A stretch of 64,000 nt of DNA. Origin: Candidatus Woesearchaeota archaeon (lineage in GTDB: Archaea; Nanobdellota; Nanobdellia; Pacearchaeales; GW2011-AR1). Position 1 is the stretch's first letter. Each line of letters opens with the position of its first letter. Location: assembly GCA_964437555.1 (NCBI GenBank), contig CAYTHI010000003.1:782-64781 (forward strand). The letters run 5' to 3'. Position numbers and translations under genes: made by a program. Below the pieces are notes generated by a model. The model did no database searches. It saw only the letters and a list, made by a program, of their open reading frames with translations, and was not told where the DNA came from. Of the stretch, positions 14,620-56,797 are shown one piece after another.

Positions 14620-14685
14620 TTATTCGAACTGCGTTCTCATACCTCCATTGGCTAGCAGCTTCGCCTTCGCTCAGTATACTATGAA

Positions 14686-14774
14686 AGCCTCTGGAGGGAA
14701 TTGAACCCCCAACCCTCAGTTTTTTTGCTTTTCTTGGTACAAAACTGATGCTCTAACCATTGAGCTACAGAGGC
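14686..14774 (-). tRNA. tRNA-Thr (anticodon UGU) with ~16-nt anticodon-loop intron
   Basis: Manual fold: acceptor GCCTCTG/CAGAGGC, D arm GCTC-AATGGTTA-GAGC, anticodon stem TCAGT/ACTGA flanking loop TTTGTA plus inserted CCAAGAAAAGCAAAAAA, T arm GGGGG-TTCAATT-CCCTC. Confidence 0.8.
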
Positions 14775-14814
14775 TTGTATTGTGAAAAGAAAATAGTCTT
14801 AAAAATCTATCGGA

Positions 14815-17592: not shown

Positions 17593-19467
17593 ATGCTGAA
17601 TAAAAGAGGGCAGGTCGCTATTTTTATCATAATTGCGATAATTATTGTAGGAGGAATAGTTTTATTTGTTTCATTCAGGGATGTTATTTTCGGAACGAGC
17701 ATTCCTGCTGAATTACAGCCGGTTTTTAATGCGTATCAGGCCTGCATTAATGAAGAAACTGAAAGAGGACTTAATTTATTAGCTAATCAGGGAGGAAGAA
17801 TAAATATTGATGAATCTGACTTAGGGAATGATTATTCGCCCTTTACAAAAAATCTTAATTTTTACGGAGTTTCTGTTCCTTATTGGTATAGACTTGACGA
17901 GAAAGGGTTCATTGAAGAGAACATCCCCGCGAGAGGAGACATGGAAGAAGAGCTTGCGCAGCTTATTGAAGAAAATCTGAATGATTGTGATTTATCTTCT
18001 TATTATGAGCAGGGATTTTATATTGATTTGCCTGATGAAATCTCTTCGTCAGTCAGCATTTCAAATAATAAAGTGGAAGTTTCTGTGGATGCTGGCTTAA
18101 GCGTATCAAAAAAAGATATTTCTGCTGTAAAAGGCAAATATGATTTAGAAACGCAAAGCAGGCTTGGAGAGTTTTATGATGCGGCAAGAAAACTTTATGA
18201 TTATGAAGCTGAGACAAATTTTGCAGAAGAATATTCTATAGATGTCATCAGATTGTATGCTCCTGTTGATGGGGTTGAAGTCCAGTGCAGCCCGAAAATC
18301 TGGAAGACAGGAGAAGAGATTGATGCTGTTAAGGAAGGATTGGAGTCAAATATAGCTGCGATAAAGTTTCAGGGGGACGATTTTACTCTGGGGAGTAAAG
18401 ATAACAAATATTTTGTTGTTGACGCAAATACAAAGGTTCCTGCCAGATTAATTTATTCCAAGGAATGGCCCAGCGTTTTTGAGATAAGCGGCGATAAAGT
18501 AACTAATGAACTGATGATTGCAGAAGCTATTGGAAATCAGCAGGGGCTTGGAGTGATGGGCTTTTGCTATGTTCCCTATCATTTTGTATATGACATGAGG
18601 TTTCCGGTTATGTTTCAAGTAGGGGACGGGGTTGATTTATTCCAGTTTCCTGTTACTGTGATTGTAGATAATAATCTGGCTAAGAAAGCTGAATTGCCGC
18701 AAATAAATTACCAGGAACCTAAATTCAGGATGTGCGATTTCAAGGAAGCAGAAGCCGAGATTCACACTTATGATGAAGAGCTTAATCCTGTTGAAGCAGA
18801 TGTAAGCTTTGAATGCCTTGAAGAATCATGCGATTTAGGAAGAACAGAAATCAAGAATGGAGATGCTGTTTTTGAAGGCAGTATTCCTATCTGTGTAAAT
18901 GGAAAAATAGTTGCCAAAGCAGAAGGATTTTCTGATGCAAGACAAACGTTTTCCTCAAATAGCGAAAGTGTTGCAAATGTAATCATGGAGAAAGAATATG
19001 AAGTTGGAGTTAATGTTATGGTTGCAGGAGGGGGCATGAAGGAAGGCGAGCAAGCAGTTATTTACTTTGAAAATGATGAAGGCGGCAGAAGCGCTGTTAT
19101 TCCAGGAAATGAGAAAGTCAAGCTTAAGGAAGGGCAATACAAAATTAAGGTTTATGTTTACGGGAATTCCGGAATTACAATCCCTGCTTCAAGCAAGAGG
19201 CAGTGCATTGATGCTGCCAGAGGGGGCTTTGCAGGATTTTTCGGAGCGACAAAAGAGGAATGCTTTAATATTGATATTCCTGAGACAAAGATTGATTATG
19301 CTCTTAAAGGCGGAGGGCAAGAGGAAAGTTATATCCTTAAAGATGAATTGATTTCAGAAGAGATAAATTTGGAAGTTCAGGAATTGCCTTCGCCTGATTC
19401 TTTGGAGCAATTGCAGTACAATTATGAGCTTTTCAACAGCATGGGGGTTGGAATATCATTCAGATGA
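17593..19467 (+). CDS. large pilin-like surface protein with class III (type IV pilin-like) signal peptide
   Basis: MLNKRGQVAIFIIIAIIIVGGIVLFV fits a basic-Gly cleavage motif with Gln at +1 followed by a hydrophobic stretch, as in archaeal prepilin-peptidase substrates. 624 aa. Confidence 0.5.
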   Translation: MLNKRGQVAIFIIIAIIIVGGIVLFVSFRDVIFGTSIPAELQPVFNAYQACINEETERGLNLLANQGGRINIDESDLGNDYSPFTKNLNFYGVSVPYWYRLDEKGFIEENIPARGDMEEELAQLIEENLNDCDLSSYYEQGFYIDLPDEISSSVSISNNKVEVSVDAGLSVSKKDISAVKGKYDLETQSRLGEFYDAARKLYDYEAETNFAEEYSIDVIRLYAPVDGVEVQCSPKIWKTGEEIDAVKEGLESNIAAIKFQGDDFTLGSKDNKYFVVDANTKVPARLIYSKEWPSVFEISGDKVTNELMIAEAIGNQQGLGVMGFCYVPYHFVYDMRFPVMFQVGDGVDLFQFPVTVIVDNNLAKKAELPQINYQEPKFRMCDFKEAEAEIHTYDEELNPVEADVSFECLEESCDLGRTEIKNGDAVFEGSIPICVNGKIVAKAEGFSDARQTFSSNSESVANVIMEKEYEVGVNVMVAGGGMKEGEQAVIYFENDEGGRSAVIPGNEKVKLKEGQYKIKVYVYGNSGITIPASSKRQCIDAARGGFAGFFGATKEECFNIDIPETKIDYALKGGGQEESYILKDELISEEINLEVQELPSPDSLEQLQYNYELFNSMGVGISFR

Positions 19468-22400
19468 GAAAAATAATATTATCTTTCTTTTTTGTATCTT
19501 TACTTGGCTTGGTTTTTGTTGGTTTAGCAGGCGCGCAGACAGCTACTTTTGTAAATCATGTTTCTCCTGATTTCAGGCAATATTATTCTGCTGAGGAAAG
19601 GCTTGGGCAGTATTATCCTATTTTCTCCCAGGAAGATGAATTTTGCAGAAACAGGCAGGATATAATATTACAAGTTGCTCCGGCGGGATGCCAGCCGACT
19701 GTTGTAAGAAGTGATTTGCTTGCTGAGCAAAATGTTCCTGTTTTCTGCCAACTGCAGGCAATACAGGCAAATCCGTTGGTTGATATAAAGCAGATAAGAA
19801 ATATAAGATTCAGCGGCAGATATCCTGCTGAAATTTCAGGAACAGGTTTTCATCCTGCTAAAGCTGCATTAAGGACAGGAAATGTTTTGCTGGGAAATCC
19901 TGTTTTAAATGATGTAGGATATGTTGTAGTTGTATTGAAGAAAAATCCGAATGAAAAAGAATTGCCTGATTTTGTCAATGCAACCCTTACTGCTAATTTA
20001 GATTATTATGCCGGCAATGCTTTTGGGATAGGCTCAAGCGAATTACTTTTGCAGGTAGTTGATGATAGTAAATGGAATTCCGTGAGAAACAAGCAGAGCT
20101 TTTTGAACGGCGAATATTTCTTCAGATTAGAAGACGCCGAGCCGGAATTTGCGATTGTTTCTGTTTATCATCAGGACAGAAAAATTAATACAGTAAGAAT
20201 AAGCAGAGCAGAGGCATCAGAAAAGATTTATCTTCCCGGCTTGTACTGCGGAGGAGAGCTTAGATTAAAGTATGACGGATTTGTTTCTCCTGAAAATATT
20301 GCAAGATTAAAAGTTGGAGACGATGAAATTGAGGTTTATGAAGGCAGCAGTTTTCTTAATAATAAATGTGTTGTCAGAGACATTAGATTTACCAGCAATA
20401 GCGAAGGAAGTGTTGATGTTGTCTGCGGAACAGAAAGATTCAGCTTAAGCATAAATCCCGAAAGGCTGAATACGGGAGATTTAGTCAAGTTTGCTGATAA
20501 GGCAGAGAGCGCAGAACTTTGGAGTGTTGTTGGTTTTGAAGAAAATTCTGACGGGAAGAAAATAAGAATTACTAATTTAGCAGGAACAGAAAGCAGAACT
20601 ATTTCTTATTCAGAAATTGTTCCTGCTGATGAAGGCAGGCTTTATGAGGCAGTATATAATGCAGGCATTGAGGATTACATAAAGCAATCTATTGACAGCT
20701 ACGAGAGAACAGCCGTTGATTATTCAGCTGAAAAAGACAACTCCGGATTTTACGGGGAGAGAGCTCTTGAAAAGGGAATTGAATTTGCTGATAATACAAA
20801 CAAAGAAGTTACAGAAGCAAGATTAATCAATCTGCTCTTGGAGCAATACCCTTCTGCAAATAACTTTTCAAAATACAGCGACAAGCTTAACAGGATGTAC
20901 AGCATTAATTCTGACAAGGCAGTTGCGGTTGTGGATATTGATAATGATTATAAGACAATAAAATTAATTGGCTTTAGAGCGCCGGAGAAAAAATCTACGG
21001 CAACCATTGCATGGGGCGGAGAAAGATTCAGCGTTGAGCAGGGAAACAGCACTTCAGTCTCTCTTGGAAATCTGACTCTGAACAGGATTGAAAGAACAGG
21101 AATCAGCATTTCAGTTAAATGCTTGGATAAGGATTTAAGCGGAGGCAATTTCAATGTTAAAGTTGATGAAACTCAAAGAGGTGTTTGCGGAAGGGATTTG
21201 TCAATTGTAAATCTGAATATAGAAGATTTTGCCAGGATAAAAGTTGAGCCTGCAACAAGAACAACAGGACAGACAAACATAAGTATCAATATTGGAATTG
21301 AAAAAAGAGCGATACAGCTTTCTCCTGAGAAGGCGAGAGAGAAAATAGAAAATTTGAATAAAACCATTGAAAAATGGGAATCTGTTTCTAATAGCCTTGG
21401 AAATGTTGTAACAGGATTGAAGGCGGCGTGCTTTGCAACTTCAGGAATTCTGACTGCAAAGAATTTTCTTACAGGATTAAGCGGAGAAGCTTTGGCAAGG
21501 CAAAAAGTTATGAGAGACAGAGGAGGCTGGACAGACAGATGCACTAATGCTGTAAGCAGAGGAGAGTATTCAAGTATGGATGAATGTTTCAGGCAGAATG
21601 CAGGAGCCATTAGCGGCGATGTAAAATCAATGACAGAGGCGTTGAATCAGGTCAATGACAGGATTAAAGGAATACAGGGAGATTATGTCAAGCCCGCAGG
21701 AATTTTTGGAGAGACAATTACAGTTGATACAGACGGATTAAAACAAACCAACTTAGATTATATAAAACAGACTTATGGAAATTCTAATATAGAAAGCACG
21801 ACATCTAGCAATCAGCAGCTTGTTCTTGGTGATGTCATAGGGAGATTGCAAAGTGCTGATTCTCTTTCTCTTGATAAAATGAGTGATATTGAACTTTATG
21901 CAAAGCTGATTGATAATCAGGGAATAAGCAATGAGCAGAAAGAATTGTACAAGCAGAGACTTGGTTTTATTCTTGAGGATGTTGAAAAAAGGAATACAGC
22001 AGATAGCGAAAGAACGAGCTTTGAGACAGATACAGGATTTAAGGCGTATATTCCAAGCTATTCAAAGTCGGGAGAATATTATGGAAATGTTTATTCATCG
22101 GGAAAGATAAATTTAGGAAGCGGAGTTGATATTGAGGCGAATTCTCCTATCCAAGCTGTTCAGGGCAATGATGGAGCACAGTATTTGTTTGTTCTAAATG
22201 AGTTAAAGAATCAGGATGGGCAGACAATCTATTCTTATGACAGAAATAAAATTTATAAACTGACTGATAATAATGGCTGGACAGCCAATGCATTGCCTGC
22301 AACTTTTGATGTTGACAAAAGCATTGGAAGTTTTTCCACTTTCAGGAGCTTGAATGCGGGAAGTTATAATTATGCTTTTGCGCAGGGAGAGGCTGTTGTG

Positions 22401-24833
22401 AAATATTATGAAAGAGAGCCATTTAAGGGAATGCCTGCAATGGTGCCAGTAGATGTTGAGTCCGGGTTTTATGCTGCGACAGAGCAAACATTGCCAGGAT
22501 TTGGAAATATAAAAGCATTTGAATCTTCAGGAAGAATAGTAGGATTTTATGTTTGTAATGTTATGGAAGACAAGAGAGTTGGATTTTTCTCTCCAGGATT
22601 TGGAGATGACAGATGCATTAGATTTGATTTAACAACAGGGCAGCCTTTAGATGTATTCCCGGGGTTAGATAGTAGTAAGGCAAAAAGATTAGTTGAGAAG
22701 GCAATTCAGGCATTAAATGAAGCCGCAAGGCAGTATGGAAAAAGCCAGGTTACTATTCTTGGAAAAGTTTTCCAGACAGGAGCGCCTGCTGCATCTTCTC
22801 CTGCAACGCAATGCCAGGATTTCATGTCCCCTGAAGACTGCCAGTTGCTTTTCAATGTTTGCGATCCTGTGATATGCCCTACTTCAAGATGTGATTTTGG
22901 AGGGCAATACCCTGTTGATAATGTAATACAATCAGGAATTGTTGGAAGTGCTTTATTATGCCTTCCTAATGCTAAAGAAGGAATTGTTGTTCCTGTCTGC
23001 CTGTCGGGAATAAAAGCAGGAGTGGATGGGTATTTATCTATATTGAAATCTCATCAGGCATGTTTGCAGGAAAATATTGATACGGGAAATACTGTTGGTG
23101 TATGTGATTTAATCACTTCTGTTTATGCTTGTGAATTTTTCTGGAGACAGGCAGCTCCTCTTGCTAATGTTTTATTGCCTAAGATAGTTGAGTTTGCTTA
23201 TACAGGAGGACAGGGGCAAGTCAGAGGAGGAGGAGAATATTTGACTGTTCAATCTGCTTGGAAGAATACGCAGGATTCAATAGACTATTTCACTAATTAT
23301 TATGCCAAGAATTCTTTTGATTCTTTCAGAGCAAGAAGTATTGAGGAGGCGGGAACTCCTTTCTGCAAGGCATTTGTTTCTGCTAAGTCACCGACGTCGT
23401 TTGATACGTTATTAGCGCCAGATTCACCGGCGCAATATCATGCATGGTTTAGAGAGACAATTTATAGTGATGCAACTGTTCCTTCCACATCGCAGTATAA
23501 ATTATTTTATCATATCTTTGCAGGAAACGACAGAGGGGCTGTTTTCAGTGTTTATTTGAAGGAGCCCCCGGAAAGCTCTTATTACAGGACAACGCCGCAA
23601 ATAATTGTAGCTTCCGGATTTGTTGCAAGAGGGCAGGCAGTCAGCGAAACAAAAGACTTCACTGCTCCTTCTGGATACAAACAGCTTTGCATAAGAGTGA
23701 ATGACCAGGAAGAATGCGGATTCAAGCAGGTTTCAACGAGCTTTGCAGTTGACTATTTGAAAGACCAGTTTGTAAAAGATGAATTGGGAAGGACAGACAT
23801 TAAGACTGAAGCTGAATGCATTTCAGGAAGTGTTAATCCCGGTGCTTTGCTGAATCCTAATATACAGGAGGCAGCACAGGAAGCAATTGACCCTGCTGTC
23901 TATAAAAGAGGGATTGTAAGGATTTGCTCTACTGAAAATCCCGGGCTTTCAACTGATTCTGCAAGATTCAAGGAAGTTGGATTCTGCGGCGATGAGAAAC
24001 TTGTTTGCTGGCTTGATACCAATAGTGTTGATACAGCATTAAGTGATAGCATTCCTGCGGATATAAAAGCAGGCATAAATAATCAGACGCTTTCTGAATT
24101 AGGGGGAGAAGCAGATAAAATATTGCAGGAAAATGGATTTGTTTTGAATGCAGAAGCTTTGTTAAAGATAGATAAGATTGTAACAGAAATAGATAAGTTA
24201 GTAGGAAAAGGAAGTGAATTAAAGAATCAGCAATCACTTGCATCTGATTATTCACAGAAAGCTGTTTCTATTGAGTCAGATATAGAAGACTTAATGAGAA
24301 ACTTATTTTTTGACAGAGATAAAGCTGCTTTATTGATTGAAAGAGGCAGACTTTATGAAGGGCTTGCAAGAATATTGATCGGGCCTGATTTTAAAGGTGA
24401 TTTTAAAGGATTAGGAAAGGCGAGCCACACAGAATGCAGAGAGCAAATGTGCTATTCTGTGGAAGGGCCTGGAGATGATGAATGCAATGTTGATGAGGAT
24501 TGTGCTAGTATAACAGGAAATAGTAATGGAGGGACAGGTCAAGAAGCAGCAGGAACAGCAGAGCAATCTTTAAGCATTAAGGATGGCATTTTGCACGGAA
24601 AGGAAGGAAGTTTTCTTTATACTGATAATGTGATTAGTCCTATTTATTTTGTTGGCACAAGAGTTTTCGTTGTACTTTCAGACAGAGCTATTTTAATAGG
24701 AGACATTAGTGAAGGAAAAATTGTTATCAATAGCAATCAGGTTAGTGATGCGCAGGAAAGAGGTTTTATTGATGAAAGTGTTTCTGCCCTTACGAGCAAA
24801 ATTGACGGGAAAGATTTTGACGGATTTTTTTAA
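19464..24833 (+). CDS. giant (1789 aa) Cys-rich secreted/cell-surface protein
   Basis: Sec signal MRKIILSFFFVSLLGLVFVGLAGAQT. Many Cys pairs. ATGA overlap with the upstream pilin-like gene. Uninterrupted 5.4-kb ORF. Confidence 0.7.
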   Translation: MRKIILSFFFVSLLGLVFVGLAGAQTATFVNHVSPDFRQYYSAEERLGQYYPIFSQEDEFCRNRQDIILQVAPAGCQPTVVRSDLLAEQNVPVFCQLQAIQANPLVDIKQIRNIRFSGRYPAEISGTGFHPAKAALRTGNVLLGNPVLNDVGYVVVVLKKNPNEKELPDFVNATLTANLDYYAGNAFGIGSSELLLQVVDDSKWNSVRNKQSFLNGEYFFRLEDAEPEFAIVSVYHQDRKINTVRISRAEASEKIYLPGLYCGGELRLKYDGFVSPENIARLKVGDDEIEVYEGSSFLNNKCVVRDIRFTSNSEGSVDVVCGTERFSLSINPERLNTGDLVKFADKAESAELWSVVGFEENSDGKKIRITNLAGTESRTISYSEIVPADEGRLYEAVYNAGIEDYIKQSIDSYERTAVDYSAEKDNSGFYGERALEKGIEFADNTNKEVTEARLINLLLEQYPSANNFSKYSDKLNRMYSINSDKAVAVVDIDNDYKTIKLIGFRAPEKKSTATIAWGGERFSVEQGNSTSVSLGNLTLNRIERTGISISVKCLDKDLSGGNFNVKVDETQRGVCGRDLSIVNLNIEDFARIKVEPATRTTGQTNISINIGIEKRAIQLSPEKAREKIENLNKTIEKWESVSNSLGNVVTGLKAACFATSGILTAKNFLTGLSGEALARQKVMRDRGGWTDRCTNAVSRGEYSSMDECFRQNAGAISGDVKSMTEALNQVNDRIKGIQGDYVKPAGIFGETITVDTDGLKQTNLDYIKQTYGNSNIESTTSSNQQLVLGDVIGRLQSADSLSLDKMSDIELYAKLIDNQGISNEQKELYKQRLGFILEDVEKRNTADSERTSFETDTGFKAYIPSYSKSGEYYGNVYSSGKINLGSGVDIEANSPIQAVQGNDGAQYLFVLNELKNQDGQTIYSYDRNKIYKLTDNNGWTANALPATFDVDKSIGSFSTFRSLNAGSYNYAFAQGEAVVKYYEREPFKGMPAMVPVDVESGFYAATEQTLPGFGNIKAFESSGRIVGFYVCNVMEDKRVGFFSPGFGDDRCIRFDLTTGQPLDVFPGLDSSKAKRLVEKAIQALNEAARQYGKSQVTILGKVFQTGAPAASSPATQCQDFMSPEDCQLLFNVCDPVICPTSRCDFGGQYPVDNVIQSGIVGSALLCLPNAKEGIVVPVCLSGIKAGVDGYLSILKSHQACLQENIDTGNTVGVCDLITSVYACEFFWRQAAPLANVLLPKIVEFAYTGGQGQVRGGGEYLTVQSAWKNTQDSIDYFTNYYAKNSFDSFRARSIEEAGTPFCKAFVSAKSPTSFDTLLAPDSPAQYHAWFRETIYSDATVPSTSQYKLFYHIFAGNDRGAVFSVYLKEPPESSYYRTTPQIIVASGFVARGQAVSETKDFTAPSGYKQLCIRVNDQEECGFKQVSTSFAVDYLKDQFVKDELGRTDIKTEAECISGSVNPGALLNPNIQEAAQEAIDPAVYKRGIVRICSTENPGLSTDSARFKEVGFCGDEKLVCWLDTNSVDTALSDSIPADIKAGINNQTLSELGGEADKILQENGFVLNAEALLKIDKIVTEIDKLVGKGSELKNQQSLASDYSQKAVSIESDIEDLMRNLFFDRDKAALLIERGRLYEGLARILIGPDFKGDFKGLGKASHTECREQMCYSVEGPGDDECNVDEDCASITGNSNGGTGQEAAGTAEQSLSIKDGILHGKEGSFLYTDNVISPIYFVGTRVFVVLSDRAILIGDISEGKIVINSNQVSDAQERGFIDESVSALTSKIDGKDFDGFF

Positions 24834-29138: not shown

Positions 29139-29165
29139 ATAGGTTTTTTTGACTTTCTTTGTGAT

Positions 29166-29253
29166 GCTCCCGTAGCTCAGCCTGGATAGAGCATCGGACT
29201 TCTAATAAGAAGAAGGAATCCGGGGGTCGCAGGTTCAAATCCTGTCGGGAGCG
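29166..29253 (+). tRNA. tRNA-Arg (anticodon UCU) with ~13-nt intron
   Basis: Manual fold: acceptor GCTCCCG/CGGGAGC, D arm GCTC...GAGC, anticodon stem TCGGA/TCCGG with loop CTTCTAA and inserted TAAGAAGAAGGAA, T arm GCAGG-TTCAAAT-CCTGT. Confidence 0.8.
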
Positions 29254-29297
29254 TTTTATTTAAGTAGATTTATATACCCTTATCAATAGAAATTTTT

Positions 29298-36803: not shown

Positions 36804-39281
36804 ATGGCTGAAGAGAAAATAGTCAAATTTTCTAAGATAGAGAAAAAGTGGCAGAAGAAGTGGGAAGATAAGAAAGTATTTGAAGTAAAAGAGAGAAAAG
36901 GCACAAAGAAGTGTTATGTTTTAGAAATGTATCCTTATCCTTCTGGAAGCGGGTTGCATATGGGGCATGCTCTTAATTATACAATAGGAGACATTTATGC
37001 GCGGTTCAAAAGAATGCAGGGATTCAATGTATTGCATCCTATGGGATTTGATTCATTCGGGCTTCCTGCTGAAAATGCAGCCATAGCTGCTAAATCCCAT
37101 CCTAAGAAATTTACAGAAGATGCAGTTAAAAATTACATAAAACAGATGAAAAATCTTGGATTAAGCTATGATTGGAGCAGAGAGATAGAAAGCCATAAGC
37201 CGGAATATTATAAATGGGACCAATGGATTTTCCTGAAAATGTTTGAAAAAGGGCTTGCTTACAGGAAAAAAGCTCCTGTTAATTTTTGTCCTAAATGTAA
37301 TAGTGTTTTGGCAAATGAGCAGGTTGTTAATGGAAAGTGCTGGAGGCATGAAGATTGTGATGTTCAAGTTAAGCAATTGGAGCAGTGGTTTTTCAAGACA
37401 ACTGCTTATGCGAATGAGCTTTACGAAGGATTGGACAAATTGGAAGGATGGCCTGAAACAATAAAGACATTGCAGAGGAATTGGATTGGTAAAAGCGAAG
37501 GAGCTGAAATAGATTTTGAAATTAATGACAGGATGTGGAAAGTTTTTACTACGAGGGCTGATACTTTGTTTGGAGTTACATTTCTTGTTGTTTCTTCACA
37601 GCATCCTGATTTGCTTGAATTAGTAGCAGACAACCAGATGAAAGAAGCCCTTGCATTTTTGAAAAAAATAAAATCAGTAAAAGAAGAAGATTTAGAGAAG
37701 ATGGATAAGCAGGGAGTTTTTACAGGCAGTTATGCTATTCATCCTTTAACAAAGGAGAAAATTCCTATCTGGACAGGGAATTTTGTTGTTGCTGATTACG
37801 GAAGCGGGATTGTAATGGGAGTTCCTGCGCATGACCAGAGGGATTTTGAGTTTGCTAAGAAATATGGATTAAAAATAAAGGAAGTCATACAGCCCGAGCA
37901 GAAAAAATTATCTAATAGCATGAAAGATGTATTTACTGATTATGGAATATTAGTAAACTCAGAGGCTTTCAACGGCCTTTTTTCTGATGAAGGTAAGGAG
38001 CACATCATAAAAGCTCTTGGATTCAAGGGAAAAGGAAGAAAGGCTGTAAAGTTCAGGCTTAAGGACTGGCTCATTTCAAGGCAGAGGTTTTGGGGAACAC
38101 CTATTCCAATTATTTATTGTGATTCGTGCGGAATTGTTCCTGTTCCTGAAAAAGATTTGCCTGTAATATTGCCGGACGATGTTAGATTTTCAGGAGTAGA
38201 AAATCCTCTTGCTGATTACAGGAAATTTGTTGAAGTTGATTGCCCAAAATGTAAATCACTAGGAAGAAGAGAGACAGACACAATGGATACTTTTGTCAAT
38301 TCTTCTTGGTATTTCTTAAGATACTTAGATAGCAGAAATAAAAAAGAAATTTTCGATAAGGAAAAGGCAAAATACTGGATGCCTGTTGATGTTTATATAG
38401 GAGGCAGGGAGCATGCCTGCCTTCATTTGATTTATTTTAGGTTTTATACAAAATTTCTAAGGGATTCAGGATTATTGAAAGTAGATGAGCCGGCTTTAAG
38501 ATTGTTTAATCAGGGAACTCTGCATGCGTCTGACGGAAGGAAGATGAGCAAATCTTACGGAAATATTATTGTGCCTGAAGCTGTTAGTGAGAAATATGGA
38601 ATAGATACTGCGAGGATGTTTTTGGTTTCAGTGGCTTCGCCTGATAAAGATATAAATTGGAGTGATGAAGGGGCTGAAGGAAGCCTGCGCTTTTTATCCA
38701 AAGTTGTGAATTTTGTTAAAAATTTTAAAAATAGGAAAATAACTGCTTTGCAGGAAAGCAGATTAAATAGGGCAATAAGGGATTATAGCCGCGACTTGGA
38801 AAATTTCAGGTATAATTTTGCTGTAATAAAATTAAGGGAATTATTTGGATATTTGGAAGAGGGATGCGATAAGAAGAGTATTGAGATTTTTATTAAATTA
38901 TTAAGCCCGATATGCCCGCATATTGCTGAGGAGCTATGGGAAATATTGGGAGGAAAGGGATTTGTTAGTTTGGAAAAATGGCCTGAATTTAATGAGAAGA
39001 AAATAGATGACAAATTGGAAGAAACTGAAAAACAAAAGGAGAAAGTTATAGAAGACATAAAGAATATTATCAGAATTATCAGCGAGAAGAGAAAAAAAGA
39101 GCCGAAGAAAGCTTACATCTATGCTTTGCCCAATGAAGTTAAGAATTATGATGCTGAACTAATAGGAATGAAAACTAATCTGAAAGCACAGATTTTTGCT
39201 GTGAATGACAAGAAAAAATATGATCCTGAAGGCAAGGCAGGAAAGGCAAAGCCGGGCAAGCCGGGAATTTATGTTGAATAA
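36804..39281 (+). CDS. leuS: leucyl-tRNA synthetase, bacterial-type
   Basis: YPYPSGSGLHMGHALNYTIGDIYARFKRMQGFNVLHPMGFDSFGLPAENAA and KMSKS (RKMSKSYGN). 825 aa. PMGFDSFGLPAEN matches the bacterial lineage rather than the archaeal one. Confidence 0.9.
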   Translation: MAEEKIVKFSKIEKKWQKKWEDKKVFEVKERKGTKKCYVLEMYPYPSGSGLHMGHALNYTIGDIYARFKRMQGFNVLHPMGFDSFGLPAENAAIAAKSHPKKFTEDAVKNYIKQMKNLGLSYDWSREIESHKPEYYKWDQWIFLKMFEKGLAYRKKAPVNFCPKCNSVLANEQVVNGKCWRHEDCDVQVKQLEQWFFKTTAYANELYEGLDKLEGWPETIKTLQRNWIGKSEGAEIDFEINDRMWKVFTTRADTLFGVTFLVVSSQHPDLLELVADNQMKEALAFLKKIKSVKEEDLEKMDKQGVFTGSYAIHPLTKEKIPIWTGNFVVADYGSGIVMGVPAHDQRDFEFAKKYGLKIKEVIQPEQKKLSNSMKDVFTDYGILVNSEAFNGLFSDEGKEHIIKALGFKGKGRKAVKFRLKDWLISRQRFWGTPIPIIYCDSCGIVPVPEKDLPVILPDDVRFSGVENPLADYRKFVEVDCPKCKSLGRRETDTMDTFVNSSWYFLRYLDSRNKKEIFDKEKAKYWMPVDVYIGGREHACLHLIYFRFYTKFLRDSGLLKVDEPALRLFNQGTLHASDGRKMSKSYGNIIVPEAVSEKYGIDTARMFLVSVASPDKDINWSDEGAEGSLRFLSKVVNFVKNFKNRKITALQESRLNRAIRDYSRDLENFRYNFAVIKLRELFGYLEEGCDKKSIEIFIKLLSPICPHIAEELWEILGGKGFVSLEKWPEFNEKKIDDKLEETEKQKEKVIEDIKNIIRIISEKRKKEPKKAYIYALPNEVKNYDAELIGMKTNLKAQIFAVNDKKKYDPEGKAGKAKPGKPGIYVE

Positions 39282-41444: not shown

Positions 41445-41506
41445 ATGTCAAGAAGTCTCCTCAACTTCTTGAACATCCAAAAAACTAAACTTAAAGTTTT
41501 TTTGAT
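41445..41506 (+). repeat. 62-bp repeat element, copy B
   Basis: Matches 29887..29948 with an inverted loop. Overlaps the last 5 codons and the stop of alaS. Confidence 0.6.
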
Positions 41507-43713
41507 TTAACAATTGCCTTTATTCTTCTTACTCCGGCTGCGACTGATTCTTCCTTGATAATTTTAAAGTAGCCAATTTCTTTTGTGTTCTTTACATGAG
41601 GGCCTGTGCAGATTTCTTTGCTGAACCATCCGCCTTTTTCTTTTTTATCTATAATTGTGTATACGGAAACTTTCTCTGGATATTTGTGTCCGAATTCTGC
41701 CTGTGCTCCTGATTTTAAGGCATCCTGTAATTTTTCCTCTGTTCTTATGACTTCTAACCCTTCAGAGATTTTTCCATTTACTAAATCCTGAACTTTCTTT
41801 ATTTCTTCATCTGTAATTTTTCTTGGAAAATTGAAATCAAATCTTAAGCGTTCTGGAGTTATATTGGAACCGCGCTGTTTCACTTCTTGGCCTAGGATTC
41901 TTCTCAAGGCTTCGTTTAGCAAATGAGTTGCAGTATGAAGATGAGTTGTTGCTTCTGATGAATCTGCAAGACCTGATTTGAAGACACCTGCTGACTGAGT
42001 TCTTGATAATTCCTGGTGTTTTCTCATTTCAGATTCAAATCCTTTTCTGTCAAATTTTAGATTTCTAAATTTTTTGCATTCCTCTTCAATTAATTCTAAA
42101 GGGAAACCATAGGATTGATATAAGAGGAACGCTTCTTTTCCTGTAAGAGTTCCCATGCTTCTTGACTTTGAAGTTTTTCCTTTATTTTCTATAGCTTCAA
42201 TTATTTTTTTATTAAATATCATCAATCCCCTTTCAATGGTATTATTAAATTTATTTTCTTCTTCATCTAATTGTGTAAGAATGAAATTCCTATTTTTTTC
42301 TAACTCTGCATAATCAGAATAAATTTTAAAGACAGGTTCAGCAACTTTATGCATAAAGTTTTTTAAGGCATATCTTTGTCCTAACCTTACACTTCTTCTT
42401 ATTAATCTTCTTAAAACATAACCTCTTCCCCTATTGCTTGGTGTAACTCCCTCTGCAAGTATAAACACTGAGGCCTTTACATGGTCAGCTATTATCCTCA
42501 TTTTTTCTTGATCTTTATATTTATTGTTAGCTAATTTCTCGATCCCGACTATTATCGGTTTCCAAATTTCTGTTAAGTAATTATCGTCTAAATTGTTTAA
42601 AATTGCAAGGGTTCTTTCAACTCCCATGCCGGTGTCTACATTTTTCTGCTTTAATGGAATAAAATAGTATCGGTTGCCTTCAATAAACTTTTCAATTTGA
42701 TTTGGATTTTTGTATAGTTCCGCTTTATTTATCCCTGCTTTTTTTGCAGATTCTAAATTGTCTTTTTTATGGTCAAAATAAATGACTTCTTCTGGCTTTA
42801 AATTGTAATTATTTAATAATTTTTTAAAAAATTCTGGATTATCTTTTGAGGGATTTTTATCAAACCCTATTATGTCATAGGGCTTTCCAAGTCTATCTTC
42901 AATGTTTTTAAGGGTTTCTTCAGTATTAAAATTCTGTAAGACCTCTTCTACTCTTTTCTTATCATTCGTCACAATAATTTTTTTTATTCTATATCTTTGT
43001 AGTAATTCATGCAATTTTTGATTTAATTTATCTTTGTCATTTATCAGACATTTTATGGCATCCACTAATATGTATTTTATTTCTGTCTTGTTGTACTGCA
43101 TAAAAACATCATTCCAGATTTCAACCCAGTTCTTATCTTTTGGATTGAATTTCTTTGGAGCCGGCTTTTTTCCTGCCCAATAAAACATCTCTGTATCAGG
43201 ACCGCATGGGCCTGTTTTTCCTGCAGGCCCCCACCAATTGTCTTCTTTTGGAAGGAAGGCAATACGTTCTTTTGGTATTCCTAAAGAAAGCCAGACATTT
43301 GCGGATTCTTCATCTTTTTTCGCATCTTTATCTCCTTTAAAACAGGAAATTGCTAATTTATTAATCGGAATTTTAAGTTCTTTTGTAAGGAATTCGTATG
43401 AGAAAGAAATAGCTTCTTCTTTCCAATAATCACCTAAAGACCAGTTTCCGAGCATTTCAAAGAAAGTATGATGGGCTGTATCTCCGACTTCATTTATGTC
43501 TCCTGTTCTTATGCACTTCTGAACGCTTGTGAGCCTTCTTCCAAGAGGATGAGGATTCCCTATTATGTATGGAACAAGGGGGTGCATACCGGCTGTTGTG
43601 AATAATACAGTAGGATCATTTTCCGGTATTAGGGATGATGAAGGGATTATTTCATGCCTTTTTCTCTTGAAGAAATTAAGGTATTTATCTATCAGGTTTT
43701 TTCTGGTTATCAT
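41491..43713 (-). CDS. alaS: alanyl-tRNA synthetase (bacterial-like catalytic core, editing domain present, no C-Ala) with ~150-aa HAD-like insertion
   Basis: LFTTAGM, HHTFFEMLGNWSLGDYWK, DTGMGVER, editing HTATHLL and CTGPHV. ~150 extra residues between IWNDVFMQYNKTE and GNRYYFIPL carry HAD-like motifs (IIVTND, GKPYDIIGFD, EEVIYFDHKKDN...AKKAGI). Confidence 0.85.
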   Translation of the reverse strand: MITRKNLIDKYLNFFKRKRHEIIPSSSLIPENDPTVLFTTAGMHPLVPYIIGNPHPLGRRLTSVQKCIRTGDINEVGDTAHHTFFEMLGNWSLGDYWKEEAISFSYEFLTKELKIPINKLAISCFKGDKDAKKDEESANVWLSLGIPKERIAFLPKEDNWWGPAGKTGPCGPDTEMFYWAGKKPAPKKFNPKDKNWVEIWNDVFMQYNKTEIKYILVDAIKCLINDKDKLNQKLHELLQRYRIKKIIVTNDKKRVEEVLQNFNTEETLKNIEDRLGKPYDIIGFDKNPSKDNPEFFKKLLNNYNLKPEEVIYFDHKKDNLESAKKAGINKAELYKNPNQIEKFIEGNRYYFIPLKQKNVDTGMGVERTLAILNNLDDNYLTEIWKPIIVGIEKLANNKYKDQEKMRIIADHVKASVFILAEGVTPSNRGRGYVLRRLIRRSVRLGQRYALKNFMHKVAEPVFKIYSDYAELEKNRNFILTQLDEEENKFNNTIERGLMIFNKKIIEAIENKGKTSKSRSMGTLTGKEAFLLYQSYGFPLELIEEECKKFRNLKFDRKGFESEMRKHQELSRTQSAGVFKSGLADSSEATTHLHTATHLLNEALRRILGQEVKQRGSNITPERLRFDFNFPRKITDEEIKKVQDLVNGKISEGLEVIRTEEKLQDALKSGAQAEFGHKYPEKVSVYTIIDKKEKGGWFSKEICTGPHVKNTKEIGYFKIIKEESVAAGVRRIKAIVKSKKL

Positions 43714-43749: not shown

Positions 43750-44100
43750 TTATTGCAATTTTTCTATCTGCCTTTTAATTTCTTCTATTTCCAGCTCCAA
43801 ATCCTCTCTTTTTTTATGCTCGTGCTTTATTTCTTCCAACTCTTCTTTTGCTTTTTCGTTTATTGAAGGGAGCTGCTTATAGAGTGCTTTCAATTCTTCA
43901 ATTGCTTCATTCGCCTTTTTCTTTATCAATAATTTTATAGCGAGCTTTTCTTCCCTTACTTTCTGATATTCCCTAATTTTTTTTATTATCTCTAAGATTT
44001 CCATTTGAGAATGGAGAAGATTTCTTTTTGCAAAAATTCTTTCTGATTTATCAAGACCTATATATTCCATTTTATTCTGTTTTCTCAAAGACTTCTTCAA
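43750..44100 (-). CDS. coiled-coil protein (hypothetical)
   Basis: 116 aa, K/E-rich heptad-like sequence. Confidence 0.35.
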   Translation of the reverse strand: MKKSLRKQNKMEYIGLDKSERIFAKRNLLHSQMEILEIIKKIREYQKVREEKLAIKLLIKKKANEAIEELKALYKQLPSINEKAKEELEEIKHEHKKREDLELEIEEIKRQIEKLQ

Positions 44101-44650
44101 TGACTGTTCTTATCTTTCCTTTTAATGACTGAAGCTCTTTTTCTAAGTAATTTATTTCGACATCTTCTTTTACCTTTGTATCTTTCAGCTTTTTGAATAA
44201 GTCGTCTATTTCTCCGAGCTTTTCCTGGACATTAGTTAAAGAGCCTCTGGCCGTCTTGAATTTGTCTATTTTTACAAAGATGGCATGCTTGTCTTTAGCA
44301 GGCATGCTGCCTGATTCAATTTGCTGAGGAAATCTCGTTTGTCTTATTTCCTGAAAATCTTGTTCTGGGAAGGCGGATTCAGATTCATTAACTTCCATTA
44401 GTTGTGGCATTTTGCTTTTAAGTTGAGGAAGAGGCAATGGAGCAGATTCTTGGATTTCGTCAAGCCTCATCATTGGCTGATTTTCTATCGGAGGCAGTTT
44501 TGGAAGGTTTCCTATCCGCACATCCTTGATTTCTTCTCCCTCAGGAGTTTCTTCAGTTATGGGGATTATCGGAGGCAGCTCAATCCTTGAGTTTGGCGCT
44601 GGCGGAAGCTCCGGCAGACCTTCGTTTTTCCCCTTTTTTTGCCAGAACAT
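44072..44650 (-). CDS. hypothetical protein with Pro-rich N-terminus and helical C-terminus
   Basis: 192 aa. LPELPPAPN...PKLPPIENQ then coiled-coil. Overlaps the downstream ORF by 29 nt. Confidence 0.35.
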   Translation of the reverse strand: MFWQKKGKNEGLPELPPAPNSRIELPPIIPITEETPEGEEIKDVRIGNLPKLPPIENQPMMRLDEIQESAPLPLPQLKSKMPQLMEVNESESAFPEQDFQEIRQTRFPQQIESGSMPAKDKHAIFVKIDKFKTARGSLTNVQEKLGEIDDLFKKLKDTKVKEDVEINYLEKELQSLKGKIRTVIEEVFEKTE

Positions 44651-44742
44651 TTTACTACTCTAATTGGGATATTTGGTTTAAATATGTTGCGAAATTCATA
44701 GTGAGTAGAAAGGTTTTTATTTGCTCTTCTTTAACTTACTTG

Positions 44743-45516
44743 ATGCCACGCCATAAAACCAGGAAAAGAGTCAATAGGATAAAAAAGAAATCAGCAAAAC
44801 CCGCTTTAATTGATAAATTTTCAATTGATTTGGTTAAGAGCGCTGTTGTCTCTGTTACAGGACCGGGAAGTGAGAAGATTGTTGACCTTTTAGCCGGAAA
44901 GAAAAATGTTAATGAATTTGATATTTCCCAGAAACTCGGCTCTACTATAAATCAAACGAGAAATGTCCTGTACAAATTATCTGACGAGGGCCTAGTCAGC
45001 TTTATCAGGAAGAAGGACAAAAAGAACGGCGGATGGTACACTTATTTCTGGACTCTTGATATATCGCGGGCTCTTGACCATCTTAAGGATATAATACAGA
45101 GAAAAATACAGGAGTTAAATAAAGAGCTTGCAAACAGACAGAGCGGGAGAATATATCATTGCGAGGTCTGCAATATTGAATATAGCGAAGAAGATGCATT
45201 GCTGAATTCTTTTTCCTGCCCGGAATGCGGAAGTGTGATGATGTTGAGAGACAATCAGCCGGTAATATCCAGGCTGAATGCCGAGATAGAGAAGGCAAAG
45301 CAGAATTTAGGCAGCCTTTTTGTAGAAATTGATAAATTGCAGAAAAAAGAAGGAGTTGTTATGGTTAGAAAACAAAAGGCAGAGGAGAGAAAGAAGAAGG
45401 CCGAGAGAAAGAAGAAGAGAGAGGAAAATCAAAAAAACAAGCCTAAAAAGAAAGTAAAAAATATTAAAAAAGCTGCTAAGCGTTCATCTAAAAAGAAGAA
45501 GAAAAAGAAGAGATAA
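44743..45516 (+). CDS. tfe: transcription factor E (TFE, TFIIE-alpha homolog)
   Basis: Winged helix GSEKIVDLLAGKKNVNEFDISQKLGSTINQTRNVLYKLSDEGLVSFIRKKDKKNGGWYTYFW, then Zn ribbon CEVC...CPECG, then a K-rich tail. ATG at 44743 chosen over the longer track ORF. Confidence 0.8.
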   Translation: MPRHKTRKRVNRIKKKSAKPALIDKFSIDLVKSAVVSVTGPGSEKIVDLLAGKKNVNEFDISQKLGSTINQTRNVLYKLSDEGLVSFIRKKDKKNGGWYTYFWTLDISRALDHLKDIIQRKIQELNKELANRQSGRIYHCEVCNIEYSEEDALLNSFSCPECGSVMMLRDNQPVISRLNAEIEKAKQNLGSLFVEIDKLQKKEGVVMVRKQKAEERKKKAERKKKREENQKNKPKKKVKNIKKAAKRSSKKKKKKKR

Positions 45517-54856: not shown

Positions 54857-56797
54857 ATGGAAAGGAGGTTTAGCATTTATTTAGCAATGAGCCTGATTGT
54901 ACTTTTCGGATTGTACTCTTTTGTCTTTTATTTCATTGCGCAGAATGCTGGTGTGTTCTTTTCTCCTCCTGTTAATGAGCCTGGAACATGCACTGATAAT
55001 GACGGAGGGATTTCCCCTTCCACTAAAGGAACTCTTGTGTCAGAGAATTATAATTATGGGCAGGCGATAACCTTAGCTGACTTCTGCCTTAATAGCAGCA
55101 ATGTTGTTGACTATTCCTGTTTTTCTAACGGTACTTTCGGGGCAAATGTTTTTGCATGCAGGTATGGATGCAATGATGGAGCATGCATTAATGATAGGTA
55201 TAGTTATTTACTCTCTCCGGAAAATTTCTTAAGGCTTAATGGTATACCTGCTGTTTCTATAAGAGACAGCGTGGCTGACAGCATTCTATGCGCAGATAAG
55301 AAAGCAGGCGATTTATGCCAGATAGGAATTACATATGTTAATATAACTAATGTTTATGTTTCTAATGATAATGTTCATAAGGCAGTCCAGCTTGACAGCG
55401 ATTTCTCAGGAAGGCCTTTCGGGGCGGTTTTTGATAATTTAAAAAACAGGATATATCTTCCGTTGAAAAGCGAGTTGCCTGCTTCTTCTGTAAATATAAA
55501 TGTTATTGACAGTGACGGTGATTTAGTCCAGCCCTACACTTTCTCATGGGGCTCTAATTCTATAAGCATAAATGCGGGTTCTTTGTCCCAATACAAAAGC
55601 CATAATTTTGCTTTTGAAGTTGTTGATGGCGACAAGTTGAAAGTTAGTTTTCCTTCAACGAATGGCAATGTAGAGCTTTATTTGCTTTATGGAGACGGAA
55701 CTTCTTTTACAGGCATTGGGCAAAATTCCAGCAATAAACTTGCCGCAACTTATGCTGACGGATTTTTATTCAACAAGACAGATGGAGACCAGTGGTTTAG
55801 CCTTTACTGGAGCAAGGCAGGCACTAACTTAACTTGTTATTCTAATTTTACCGCAAAAATAGGACAATGCCTACCTGGAGAGCGCAATGAAAAATACTTT
55901 ACAAGCAGCAATACTTGCGGAATCAGCCTTCCTGAAAATCAAACATTTGAGAGATGCGATTATGATAATAACAGAGTCATAGGGTTTGTCAGTGATATTG
56001 ACAGCAACTTCAATGCTTCGCTTTACGATAATGGCTTTGCAGCGAATTTGTCCAGAAATTTTTCCGGAGAGCATGAAATATCAATCAATGAGGGGGGAGA
56101 TAAAAGAGTAGAATTTACTTTTGATTTTGATGAAGATGTATTGGATTTAACTGAAATATTTTTGAGGAGGCAGAATAATTCAGAAGGTTTTGGCTATGTC
56201 ATTGTAAATGGTCTGGATAATCTGAACAAGAGCGCTTATGTAGATAAGCTGGCTAATCAAAGCAATTCTGTATGCATTAAAAACAGGGATATTCAGGATA
56301 TAGATGAATTTTCTAACAGATGCACTTCAAACAGCGAGGAAGTTGTTTTATGCAATGGAATTGGGGATGAGGAATATGTATGCACTGATTTTGGCTCTTA
56401 TTATTTAGTGAGCGGATTGTCGGACTCTGCTGTAAAAGAATTTTTCTATCAGGGATATACGGGAAATGGCTCATCTAATTGTATTCCTTCATGGAGCTGC
56501 GGGGAATGGGAAGAATGTGCTGGCGGCCAGCAGATTAGGATTTGTGAGGATGTTAATAGCTGCGGTAGCTCATCTGGAAAGCCTTCGGAAGTAAAAGAGT
56601 GCGGAGAGTCTTCTGTACAGCAATCCAGCCAGAACGGGCAGGAATTAAATCCTGCAGGTTCAGCTTCTATTGGCGCACAGATTTATTTCTGGATGATTAT
56701 TATGATTATTCTTGTCTGCATAGCAATAGTAATCATACTCATAGCCCTCAATATAAAGAATAAGAGAAAGCTTGCCGAGCAATTTTTCTTAGGATGA
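54857..56797 (+). CDS. Cys-rich extracellular protein with N-terminal TM/signal and C-terminal TM anchor
   Basis: 646 aa with many Cys. C-terminal IYFWMIIMIILVCIAIVIILIAL anchor followed by KNKRK. Confidence 0.55.
   Translation: MERRFSIYLAMSLIVLFGLYSFVFYFIAQNAGVFFSPPVNEPGTCTDNDGGISPSTKGTLVSENYNYGQAITLADFCLNSSNVVDYSCFSNGTFGANVFACRYGCNDGACINDRYSYLLSPENFLRLNGIPAVSIRDSVADSILCADKKAGDLCQIGITYVNITNVYVSNDNVHKAVQLDSDFSGRPFGAVFDNLKNRIYLPLKSELPASSVNINVIDSDGDLVQPYTFSWGSNSISINAGSLSQYKSHNFAFEVVDGDKLKVSFPSTNGNVELYLLYGDGTSFTGIGQNSSNKLAATYADGFLFNKTDGDQWFSLYWSKAGTNLTCYSNFTAKIGQCLPGERNEKYFTSSNTCGISLPENQTFERCDYDNNRVIGFVSDIDSNFNASLYDNGFAANLSRNFSGEHEISINEGGDKRVEFTFDFDEDVLDLTEIFLRRQNNSEGFGYVIVNGLDNLNKSAYVDKLANQSNSVCIKNRDIQDIDEFSNRCTSNSEEVVLCNGIGDEEYVCTDFGSYYLVSGLSDSAVKEFFYQGYTGNGSSNCIPSWSCGEWEECAGGQQIRICEDVNSCGSSSGKPSEVKECGESSVQQSSQNGQELNPAGSASIGAQIYFWMIIMIILVCIAIVIILIALNIKNKRKLAEQFFLG

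Follow-up and report, generated by a model that had tools for sequence, protein, structure and literature searches.

Within a 64,000-nucleotide stretch of a Candidatus Woesearchaeota genome (assembly GCA_964437555.1, contig CAYTHI010000003.1, positions 782 to 64,781 of the forward strand; hereafter the window, to whose numbering all coordinates refer unless stated otherwise), a complete gene for an alanyl-tRNA synthetase (AlaRS) of the small type (41491..43713, -) carries a folded extra domain inside its catalytic core. The extra segment, residues 212-349 (42667..43080, -), is in frame and is a capless miniature domain of the haloacid dehalogenase (HAD) fold, here called mini-HAD, that stands in place of a hairpin turn. 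The first-pass annotation of this DNA, made from the letters alone, had described a HAD-like module of about 150 residues in the AlaRS core; the module is real and in frame, and its length is corrected to 138 residues, of which ~136 are a net gain because the insert displaces a two-residue turn. On balance we lean towards the reading that the insert is an autonomous mini-HAD, either an enzyme or a ligand-binding domain, which rides on a functional small-AlaRS and is dispensable for alanylation, the last because orthologues without it exist.

The host gene is an intact, uninterrupted open reading frame (ORF) of 740 residues, identified from the ORF list, NCBIfam and an AlphaFold2 (AF2) model. 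Pfam recognizes tRNA-synt_2c (E 1e-126) in two stretches with a HAD match between them, and a tRNA_SAD editing module at residues 682-731. The NCBIfam equivalog for short AlaRS of 595 residues (NF002436) gives 726.6 bits for the whole protein against a cutoff of 529; its model positions ~210 and 213 flank the insert, and its second stretch covers residues 346-737. The bacterial alaS model TIGR00344 scores 550.2 bits (cutoff 457) and the archaeal AlaRS model only 199, indicating a core of the bacterial type, and the protein terminates a few residues past the editing domain, at residue 740, so that the C-Ala domain is absent. Both features had been proposed from the sequence at the outset, and the profile scores and the position of the terminus bear them out. 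The window is of archaeal origin, encoding TFIIE-alpha and an ATP-dependent DNA ligase. The full-length AF2 model has a mean predicted local distance difference test score (pLDDT) of 89.5 and a predicted template-modelling score (pTM) of 0.72, and its core superposes on the solved AlaRS catalytic fragments 1riq and 3hxu (TMt 0.82-0.86).

The N-terminal part of the class II catalytic domain occupies residues 1-211 (43081..43713, -; Pfam tRNA-synt_2c stretch 9-211, checked by translation) and includes the pocket residues N201 and V203 within 'EIWNDVFMQYNKTE', which are invariant in 102 sequences. Beyond the insert, residues 350-740 (41494..42666, -) comprise the return strand of the hairpin, motif 3, the tRNA-recognition helices and the editing domain. 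Class II motif 3, which also lines the alanine pocket, reads 'DTGMGVER' (aa 360-367, 42613..42636, -) and lies 11 residues past the insert; its D360, G362, G364 and R367 are invariant in the 102 aligned sequences, that of the window included. We take N201, V203, D360 and G362 to be the equivalents of N212, V214, D235 and G237 of Escherichia coli AlaRS. The zinc and editing motifs HTATH (aa 593-597, 41923-41937) and CTGPH (aa 702-706, 41596-41610) are likewise invariant, and the residues of the pocket, motif 3 and the editing site are all unchanged in insert-bearing and insert-less proteins alike. Residues that flank the alanine pocket covary nearly perfectly in the homologue alignment, I199-W200 (43111-43116) with T361-M363 (42625-42633): 96 sequences have the pattern 'EIWN...DTGMG', 23 have 'EIGN...DFGGG' and a single one is exceptional, and both patterns occur in AlaRS with and without the insert. 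As read from the alignment, this covariation resembles compensatory repacking beside N201, D360 and G362.

The small-AlaRS type has been described in bacteria of the Candidate Phyla Radiation (CPR) and in DPANN archaea and ascribed to horizontal transfer from bacteria, in an account that does not mention an insert of this kind (bioRxiv 10.1101/2023.05.29.542759). A profile scan of contigs placed the type in CPR, Firmicutes, Spirochaetes and several DPANN groups, and the proteins were insert-less among the matches listed. Like the described small-AlaRS (NF002436/PRK01584), the window protein has catalytic, tRNA-recognition and editing domains, no C-Ala and bacterial signature features; described members, however, are ~585-600 residues long with a two-residue turn before motif 3, where the window protein has a folded domain of 138 residues.

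The borders of the insert were set from an alignment of the best 120 homologues and by aligning codons with those of a syntenic orthologue that has no insert. Across this region the sequence of insert-less proteins is QYNKKE-DG-TYIALKQKNVDTGMG, and it is the two-residue turn in this string that the 138 residues replace, which confirms the insertion point originally proposed. The junctions are ..KTE/IKY.. at the start and ..GNRY/YF.. at the end. Topologically the site falls between class II motifs 2 and 3, at the tip of a beta-hairpin whose first strand bears N201 and V203 and whose return strand runs into motif 3; in the AF2 model the two strands (residues 196-211 and 349-364) form a long two-stranded beta-ribbon of 16 residues. 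Because the tip lies 8 residues past V203, the strand register would put the insert probably 25 Å or more from the alanine pocket. With the domain at the distal tip of the hairpin, by this estimate of distance, the earlier description of it as embedded in the adenylation/aminoacylation site overstated its intimacy with catalysis. The GC content of the insert is 0.26 as against 0.33-0.38 for the remainder of the gene, and its borders carry no terminal repeats, nuclease or splicing motif, just short AT-rich chance repeats.

Taken alone, the insert is matched above cutoff by PF00702 (31.5 bits, cutoff 26.4) and TIGR01509 (38.8 bits, cutoff 29.4), in the post-cap part of the HAD profiles only, the match beginning at position 93 of 191. 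An AlphaFold model built from 53 insert sequences (pLDDT 90.3, pTM 0.84) has a five-stranded beta-alpha Rossmannoid core, and a Foldseek comparison of this model with the Protein Data Bank returned HAD enzymes exclusively. The HAD-like character noticed in the first pass is thereby upheld. Only ~25 residues, forming one short hairpin and one helix, separate D218 from strand 2, that is, motif I from motif II, so the C1 cap is absent. In motifs III-IV and the helix that follows, the sequence of the insert matches HAD subfamily IA (YihX, 8pno/2b0c; the sEH N-terminal phosphatase, 5aki; the DR hydrolase, 3cnh), from which it differs in the missing C1 cap, in Ile, Met or Val for the Asp+2 of DxDx[TV] and in a motif IV of D-H rather than D-D. 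The capless C0 HADs (MDP-1, 1u7p; the KDN9P and KDO8P phosphatases, 3e81/1k1e; HisB-N; GmhB) share the minimal capless core and are of similar size, with structural matches to the insert reaching TMq 0.65, but unlike the insert they retain the full DxDxT and DD/GDxxxD motifs, and close sequence kinship between them and the insert was not detected.

Residue conservation was compared across 71 AlaRS inserts and 117 free-standing relatives. D218, at the position of the motif I nucleophile in 'ILVDAIKCL' (43060..43062, -), is conserved without exception in the 71 inserts and the 117 free-standing proteins. Two residues further on, where canonical HADs have their general acid/base, the window protein has Ile; all inserts have Ile, Met or Val there, and the free-standing relatives inspected are also hydrophobic at this position. 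D218+4 is Cys or Thr, and the insert departs from the canonical DxDx[TV] signature. Motif I, previously judged to be at best degenerate, thus keeps an invariant Asp and lacks the Asp+2. In the string 'IIVTND', read in the first pass as motif II, T249-N250 stand at the motif II position (42964..42969, -); residue 249 is Thr in 29 of the 71 inserts, Val in 35 and Ile in 3, and Thr in all 117 free-standing proteins, and N250 is kept in 68 of the inserts. The motif III lysine is K290, in 'NPSKDNPEFF' (42844..42846, -), which is invariant in inserts and free-standing relatives and in the profile alignment falls on the corresponding lysine of YihX and TM_1254. This alignment to YihX shows that the earlier assignment of motif III to 'GKPYD' was mistaken: its first residue, G276, is the last of a segment of ~15 residues private to the window protein (aa 262-276, 'FNTEETLKNIEDRLG', 42886..42930, -), which is gapped in ~47-70 of the 71 inserts and in all free-standing relatives and has the lowest pLDDT in the insert (60-75).

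Motif IV is D314-H315, in 'VIYFDHKKDN..SA' (42769..42774, -), with His in place of the second acidic residue; the 'YFDH' of the insert aligns with 'FFDD' of YihX. Position 314 is always Asp or Glu (Glu in the free-standing proteins), and all 71 inserts and all but one of the 117 free-standing proteins have H315. Y312, before motif IV, and A323, after it, are invariant in both sets. Mean identity among the 71 inserts is only ~45% despite the invariance of D218, K290, Y312, D/E314, H315 and A323, and so strong a conservation of pocket residues, in inserts and free-standing proteins alike, indicates that the module's own function is under selection. The insert is therefore a capless HAD-fold domain with a conserved but non-canonical pocket, in which Asp+2 is missing and Asp-His replaces Asp-Asp. 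Lacking Asp+2, it is not a canonical phosphatase; judging from its residues, it may act on activated phosphoryl compounds whose hydrolysis does not depend on a general acid, or may simply bind a ligand or metal.

The architecture is not a peculiarity of one genome. Homologues were collected as clusters at 90% identity from NCBI, ENA, JGI and Logan assemblies, and 71 of the best 120 clusters encode proteins of 690-770 residues with the identical insert junction and 55-63% identity over 99% of the query, the remaining 49 being 583-616 residues long and without the insert. Where named, the best AlaRS matches are mostly from Pacearchaeota. In the NCBI pipeline, the label 'HAD-IA family hydrolase' is given to some insert-bearing proteins and 'alanine--tRNA ligase-related protein' to one, and through such mislabelling genomes can seem to be without AlaRS.

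Presence of the insert varies among close relatives. The nearest AlaRS cores to that of the window (P0009-P0011, 76% identity) have no insert, and the nearest insert-bearing core is 71.5% identical. Two loci, L081 (Pacearchaeota GCA_002763075.1, with insert) and L082 (without), have 86% identical cores separated by a clean in-frame indel of ~130 codons, in a common gene order of glycosyltransferase-ScpB-SpoIIM-rhomboid-TFE-two small genes-AlaRS, with BacA and LeuRS further downstream. Among pairs with >80% core identity the insert state differs in 12 of 40. The variation among these syntenic orthologues disfavours a role required for alanylation.

Where present, the inserts fall into two types, A ('VDA[IV]..VTNA') and G ('VDGM..VVN.FREKG'), which share 55% identity within a type and 39% between types. 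At the syntenic loci L083 (type A) and L084 (type G) the flanks share 85-95% identity, whereas the inserts share just 10-55%; the reverse holds for P0025 and P0085, where inserts of 88% identity sit in cores of 62% identity. A neighbour-joining tree of the module separates A and G as distinct lineages, with free-standing genes nested within G and adjoining A, and modules from other hosts between them. The insert type of the nearest core neighbour is predicted no better than at random (0.536 vs 0.506 permuted, p = 0.37). A global correlation of insert and core distances was set aside as proof of mobility, the two halves of the core being likewise poorly correlated, and decoupling was judged instead from specific syntenic pairs and nearest-neighbour permutation tests. 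By these sequence comparisons, repeated gain, loss or replacement of the cassette is well indicated but not proven, and allelic recombination would be the most probable route of its exchange.

The module is far more widespread than this one host. Searched with the insert alone, a set of 1.8 billion representative proteins yielded 192 matches, many of them free-standing proteins of 120-135 residues that open with 'MKTILVDA..TFV' and share the motifs of the insert (34-50% identity over phmmer and profile hits), and a family profile recovered at least 1325 clusters of free-standing proteins of ~127 residues from CPR phyla (Jorgensen-, Ames-, Woese- and Berkelbacteria, Paceibacterota) and Nanoarchaeota. 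The insert conforms to the family pattern hhhVD[AG]h.[TC]h ... K..P.YF ... Yh[DE]H...h.SA..GI over a capless core of ~125 residues. The free-standing mini-HADs, annotated as 'HAD-IA family hydrolase', have the length, the capless Rossmannoid core and the invariant Asp, Lys, Tyr-x-[D/E]-His and Ala of the insert; they differ in being independent genes, whereas the AlaRS insert has no termini of its own and in about half of cases has Val instead of Thr at motif II. Gene neighbourhoods of free-standing copies showed no consistent partner among the loci inspected. At one of them, L089 (941-3185 of that locus), a G-type mini-HAD gene lies between a 473-residue protein with a weak LAGLIDADG match and two HIT-family fragments, and at another, L087, a copy comes after a NUDIX gene. 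Within the 64-kb window, a six-frame profile search detected the module once, in the AlaRS insert (E 7e-40), the next match being at E 0.037.

Several other housekeeping proteins also harbour the module. It is embedded in LeuRS, together with GNAT, NUDIX, Ham1 or serine-hydrolase inserts, in class I synthetases of the Ile/Val type, at the C-terminus of class II synthetases of the Asp/Lys/Asn type, in the middle of GyrA, at the N-terminus of ribosomal protein uL22 and in a flavin reductase. Presence in so many unrelated hosts indicates that there is no host specificity, and the first impression of a feature unique to one essential enzyme does not survive the abundance of free-standing CPR/DPANN copies and of these further hosts. 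Some metagenomic LeuRS and Ile/Val-type synthetases of 1250-1350 residues (P0185, P0197, P0236 and P0262) carry several enzyme domains in tandem with the mini-HAD, namely GNAT acetyltransferase, NUDIX, Ham1/ITPase and serine hydrolase domains, and up to three HAD inserts were seen in Der/EngA GTPases.

Under the reading that we favour, a capless, independently folding mini-HAD would have been captured in frame at the hairpin tip ahead of class II motif 3 from the large CPR/DPANN family of free-standing HAD-like proteins of ~127 residues. Having kept the family pocket (Asp218, the motif II Thr/Asn, Lys290 and Asp314-His315), it would perform the family's own ligand-binding or hydrolytic function outside alanine activation and transfer, presumably non-canonical phosphoryl or Mg-dependent chemistry whose substrate is a small molecule, phosphorylated or activated. 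The essential, constitutively expressed AlaRS would serve as its carrier and would itself remain active, the two functions being probably independent of each other; we propose that the synthetase tolerates its passenger because the point of attachment is a surface hairpin in a distal position. Related archaea would exchange or regenerate insert-bearing alleles, insert-less alleles and alleles with a module of the other lineage, probably via homologous recombination.

Several points weigh against this proposal. Insert-to-core distances are poorly correlated (rho ~0.06), yet so are those of the N- and C-terminal halves of the core (rho 0.10-0.14). Decoupling was assessed from pairwise identities and unbootstrapped neighbour-joining trees, third-codon positions of the one pair examined, L083/L084, are close to saturated, and part of the pattern could be rate heterogeneity. 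With Asp+2 missing and Val at motif II in half of the inserts, the module could be catalytically dead and have a binding or structural role only, and its disproportionate occurrence in aminoacyl-tRNA synthetases (aaRSs) of both classes makes a translation-linked role in cis possible.

Such a role, in which the mini-HAD acts together with the synthetase as a functional accessory of aaRSs, seems to us unlikely, though not negligible. The domain might hydrolyse what aminoacylation yields as product or by-product (pyrophosphate, AMP, mis-activated aminoacyl-adenylate or Ap4A-type compounds), dephosphorylate or hold the 3' end of the tRNA, or offer an extra tRNA-binding surface to a small-AlaRS devoid of C-Ala. 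The module occurs in at least four kinds of aaRS from both classes (AlaRS, LeuRS, the Ile/Val type and the Asp/Lys/Asn type), and in LeuRS and other class I hosts it adjoins the nucleotide- and acyl-handling inserts NUDIX, Ham1, GNAT and serine hydrolase. Capless HADs typically act on macromolecules or borrow a neighbouring protein as a cap, and the capless MDP-1 and KDN9P phosphatase are among the structural matches of the insert. The free-standing copies beside HIT-family genes and beside a NUDIX gene point the same way. An accessory of the synthetase would not, however, be expected to come and go among syntenic AlaRS orthologues, nor to reside also in GyrA, uL22 and a flavin reductase; more than 1300 free-standing clusters show no consistent translation-related neighbours, the general acid/base Asp+2 is absent, and the insertion at the distal tip of a 16-residue beta-ribbon would, on the model, hold the domain away from the rim of the active site.

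Alternatively, the insert might be an in-frame domain cassette of nomadic or selfish character, or else a neutral passenger; it would spread by recombination among permissive sites of conserved essential genes and from allele to allele, would be of little or no use to its host protein and would persist since precise loss is rare. We regard this as rather improbable, although the patchwork of insert-bearing, insert-less, A-type and G-type alleles among close syntenic orthologues fits it well, as do the 88% identical modules of P0025 and P0085 in divergent cores, the two module lineages at an identical site with free-standing genes nested among them, the low GC content relative to the rest of the gene, and the choice of conserved essential genes as hosts, which is typical for inteins. 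The absence of a nuclease, splicing motif or terminal repeat at the borders speaks against it, as does the conserved pocket, which implies selection on the module's own function, and the decoupling signal is diluted by a generally weak phylogenetic signal. The likeness to inteins extends to the in-frame block at a conserved site of an essential gene (aaRSs and GyrA included) and to patchiness among relatives, but the mini-HAD has no Hint fold, splicing residues or homing endonuclease, and the block must remain in the mature protein. That the insert is itself a degenerate intein, or else an artefact of chimeric assembly or of a frameshifted gene fusion, is hardly credible. Nothing favours such an origin beyond the a priori oddity of a 138-residue block in a conserved core and its lower GC content. 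Chimeric assembly is excluded, since the architecture recurs with exactly the same junctions in no fewer than 70 independent clusters obtained by different projects, and the ORF is uninterrupted; structure predictions, moreover, are confident for both core and insert. An intein is excluded, in agreement with the first-pass annotation, by the lack of an initial Cys, Ser or Thr and of a terminal HN followed by Cys, Ser or Thr, and by a HAD Rossmannoid fold in place of Hint.

Insertion domains between motifs 2 and 3 are known in other class II aaRSs, namely the INS editing domain of bacterial ProRS and the domain of HisRS, and the mini-HAD occupies the corresponding topological slot, where a folded domain is tolerated. 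The YbaK-like INS and HisRS domains have folds unrelated to the mini-HAD, however, and are fixed in their lineages, where they serve editing or tRNA handling, whereas the AlaRS insert is polymorphic and belongs to a family that is also free-standing. Both the host type and the use of this slot were already known; what appears to be new is a HAD domain in AlaRS, and the main value of the finding lies in the wider pattern that it exposes. AlaRS is treated in two published accounts (PMC8887476, PMC10036535) as an unusually invariant 'prototype' architecture across life, and against that description a folded, enzyme-like domain within its catalytic domain is unexpected. Full-text literature searches did not turn up any account of an AlaRS with a HAD insert, of the polymorphism of such an insert or of the multi-host behaviour of the module, and in a survey of archaeal gene fusion and fission (PMC11237513) the terms 'alanyl', 'tRNA synthetase', 'tRNA ligase' and 'haloacid' do not occur. 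The supposition that the arrangement was undescribed therefore holds for the literature searched, although proteins of this kind are already present in public databases.

Around the AlaRS gene, the window preserves the TFE-two small genes-AlaRS portion of the gene order common to L081 and L082, in the form of a TFIIE-alpha-like gene (44587-45516, +), an ORF of 192 residues (44072-44650, -) and a coiled-coil ORF of ~110 residues (43750-44100, -), the two small ORFs belonging to no Pfam family. The LeuRS of the window (36804-39281, +; 825 aa) has no extra domain, whereas that of the syntenic L081 (9716-12604 of its locus, -; 962 aa, 69% identical) has an additional ~136 residues with a NUDIX domain past the position of window residue 363, in blocks of 106 and 30 residues. 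With this NUDIX domain, a neighbouring synthetase supplies a second example of an inserted enzyme domain that is polymorphic. Elsewhere in the window, three large ORFs (19464-24833, +, 1789 aa; 17593-19467, +, 624 aa; 54857-56797, +, 646 aa) have no Pfam match at E <= 1e-4, and the genes for tRNA-Gly(ACC) (14685-14775, -, 91 nt) and tRNA-Arg(TCT) (29165-29254, +, 90 nt) are longer than standard tRNAs, which may reflect archaeal-type introns or a miscall.

Insert-bearing AlaRS occurs in many uncultivated archaea and varies among close relatives, and so constitutes a natural experiment on how much foreign structure the active-site sheet of a class II synthetase tolerates. It also offers a way into a mini-HAD family that is abundant in CPR/DPANN organisms and uncharacterised. 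A bolder possibility, which we hold to be doubtful, is that the mini-HAD is a nomadic cassette of these organisms, a free-standing gene that repeatedly enters, in frame, permissive surface loops of conserved essential genes (those for AlaRS, LeuRS, the Ile/Val-type and Asp/Lys-type aaRSs, GyrA and uL22) and is then swapped, replaced or removed by recombination, both between alleles and with free-standing copies, intein-like in behaviour without splicing or a nuclease. If true, it would exemplify a broader and so far undescribed tendency of reduced genomes of this kind to place small 'house-cleaning' enzymes (HAD, NUDIX, Ham1, GNAT) within aaRSs, possibly with a function in cis on aaRS products. 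Together with the NUDIX, GNAT and Ham1 inserts in neighbouring synthetases, the mini-HAD of AlaRS hints at a general process of gene fusion by insertion in ultra-small genomes.

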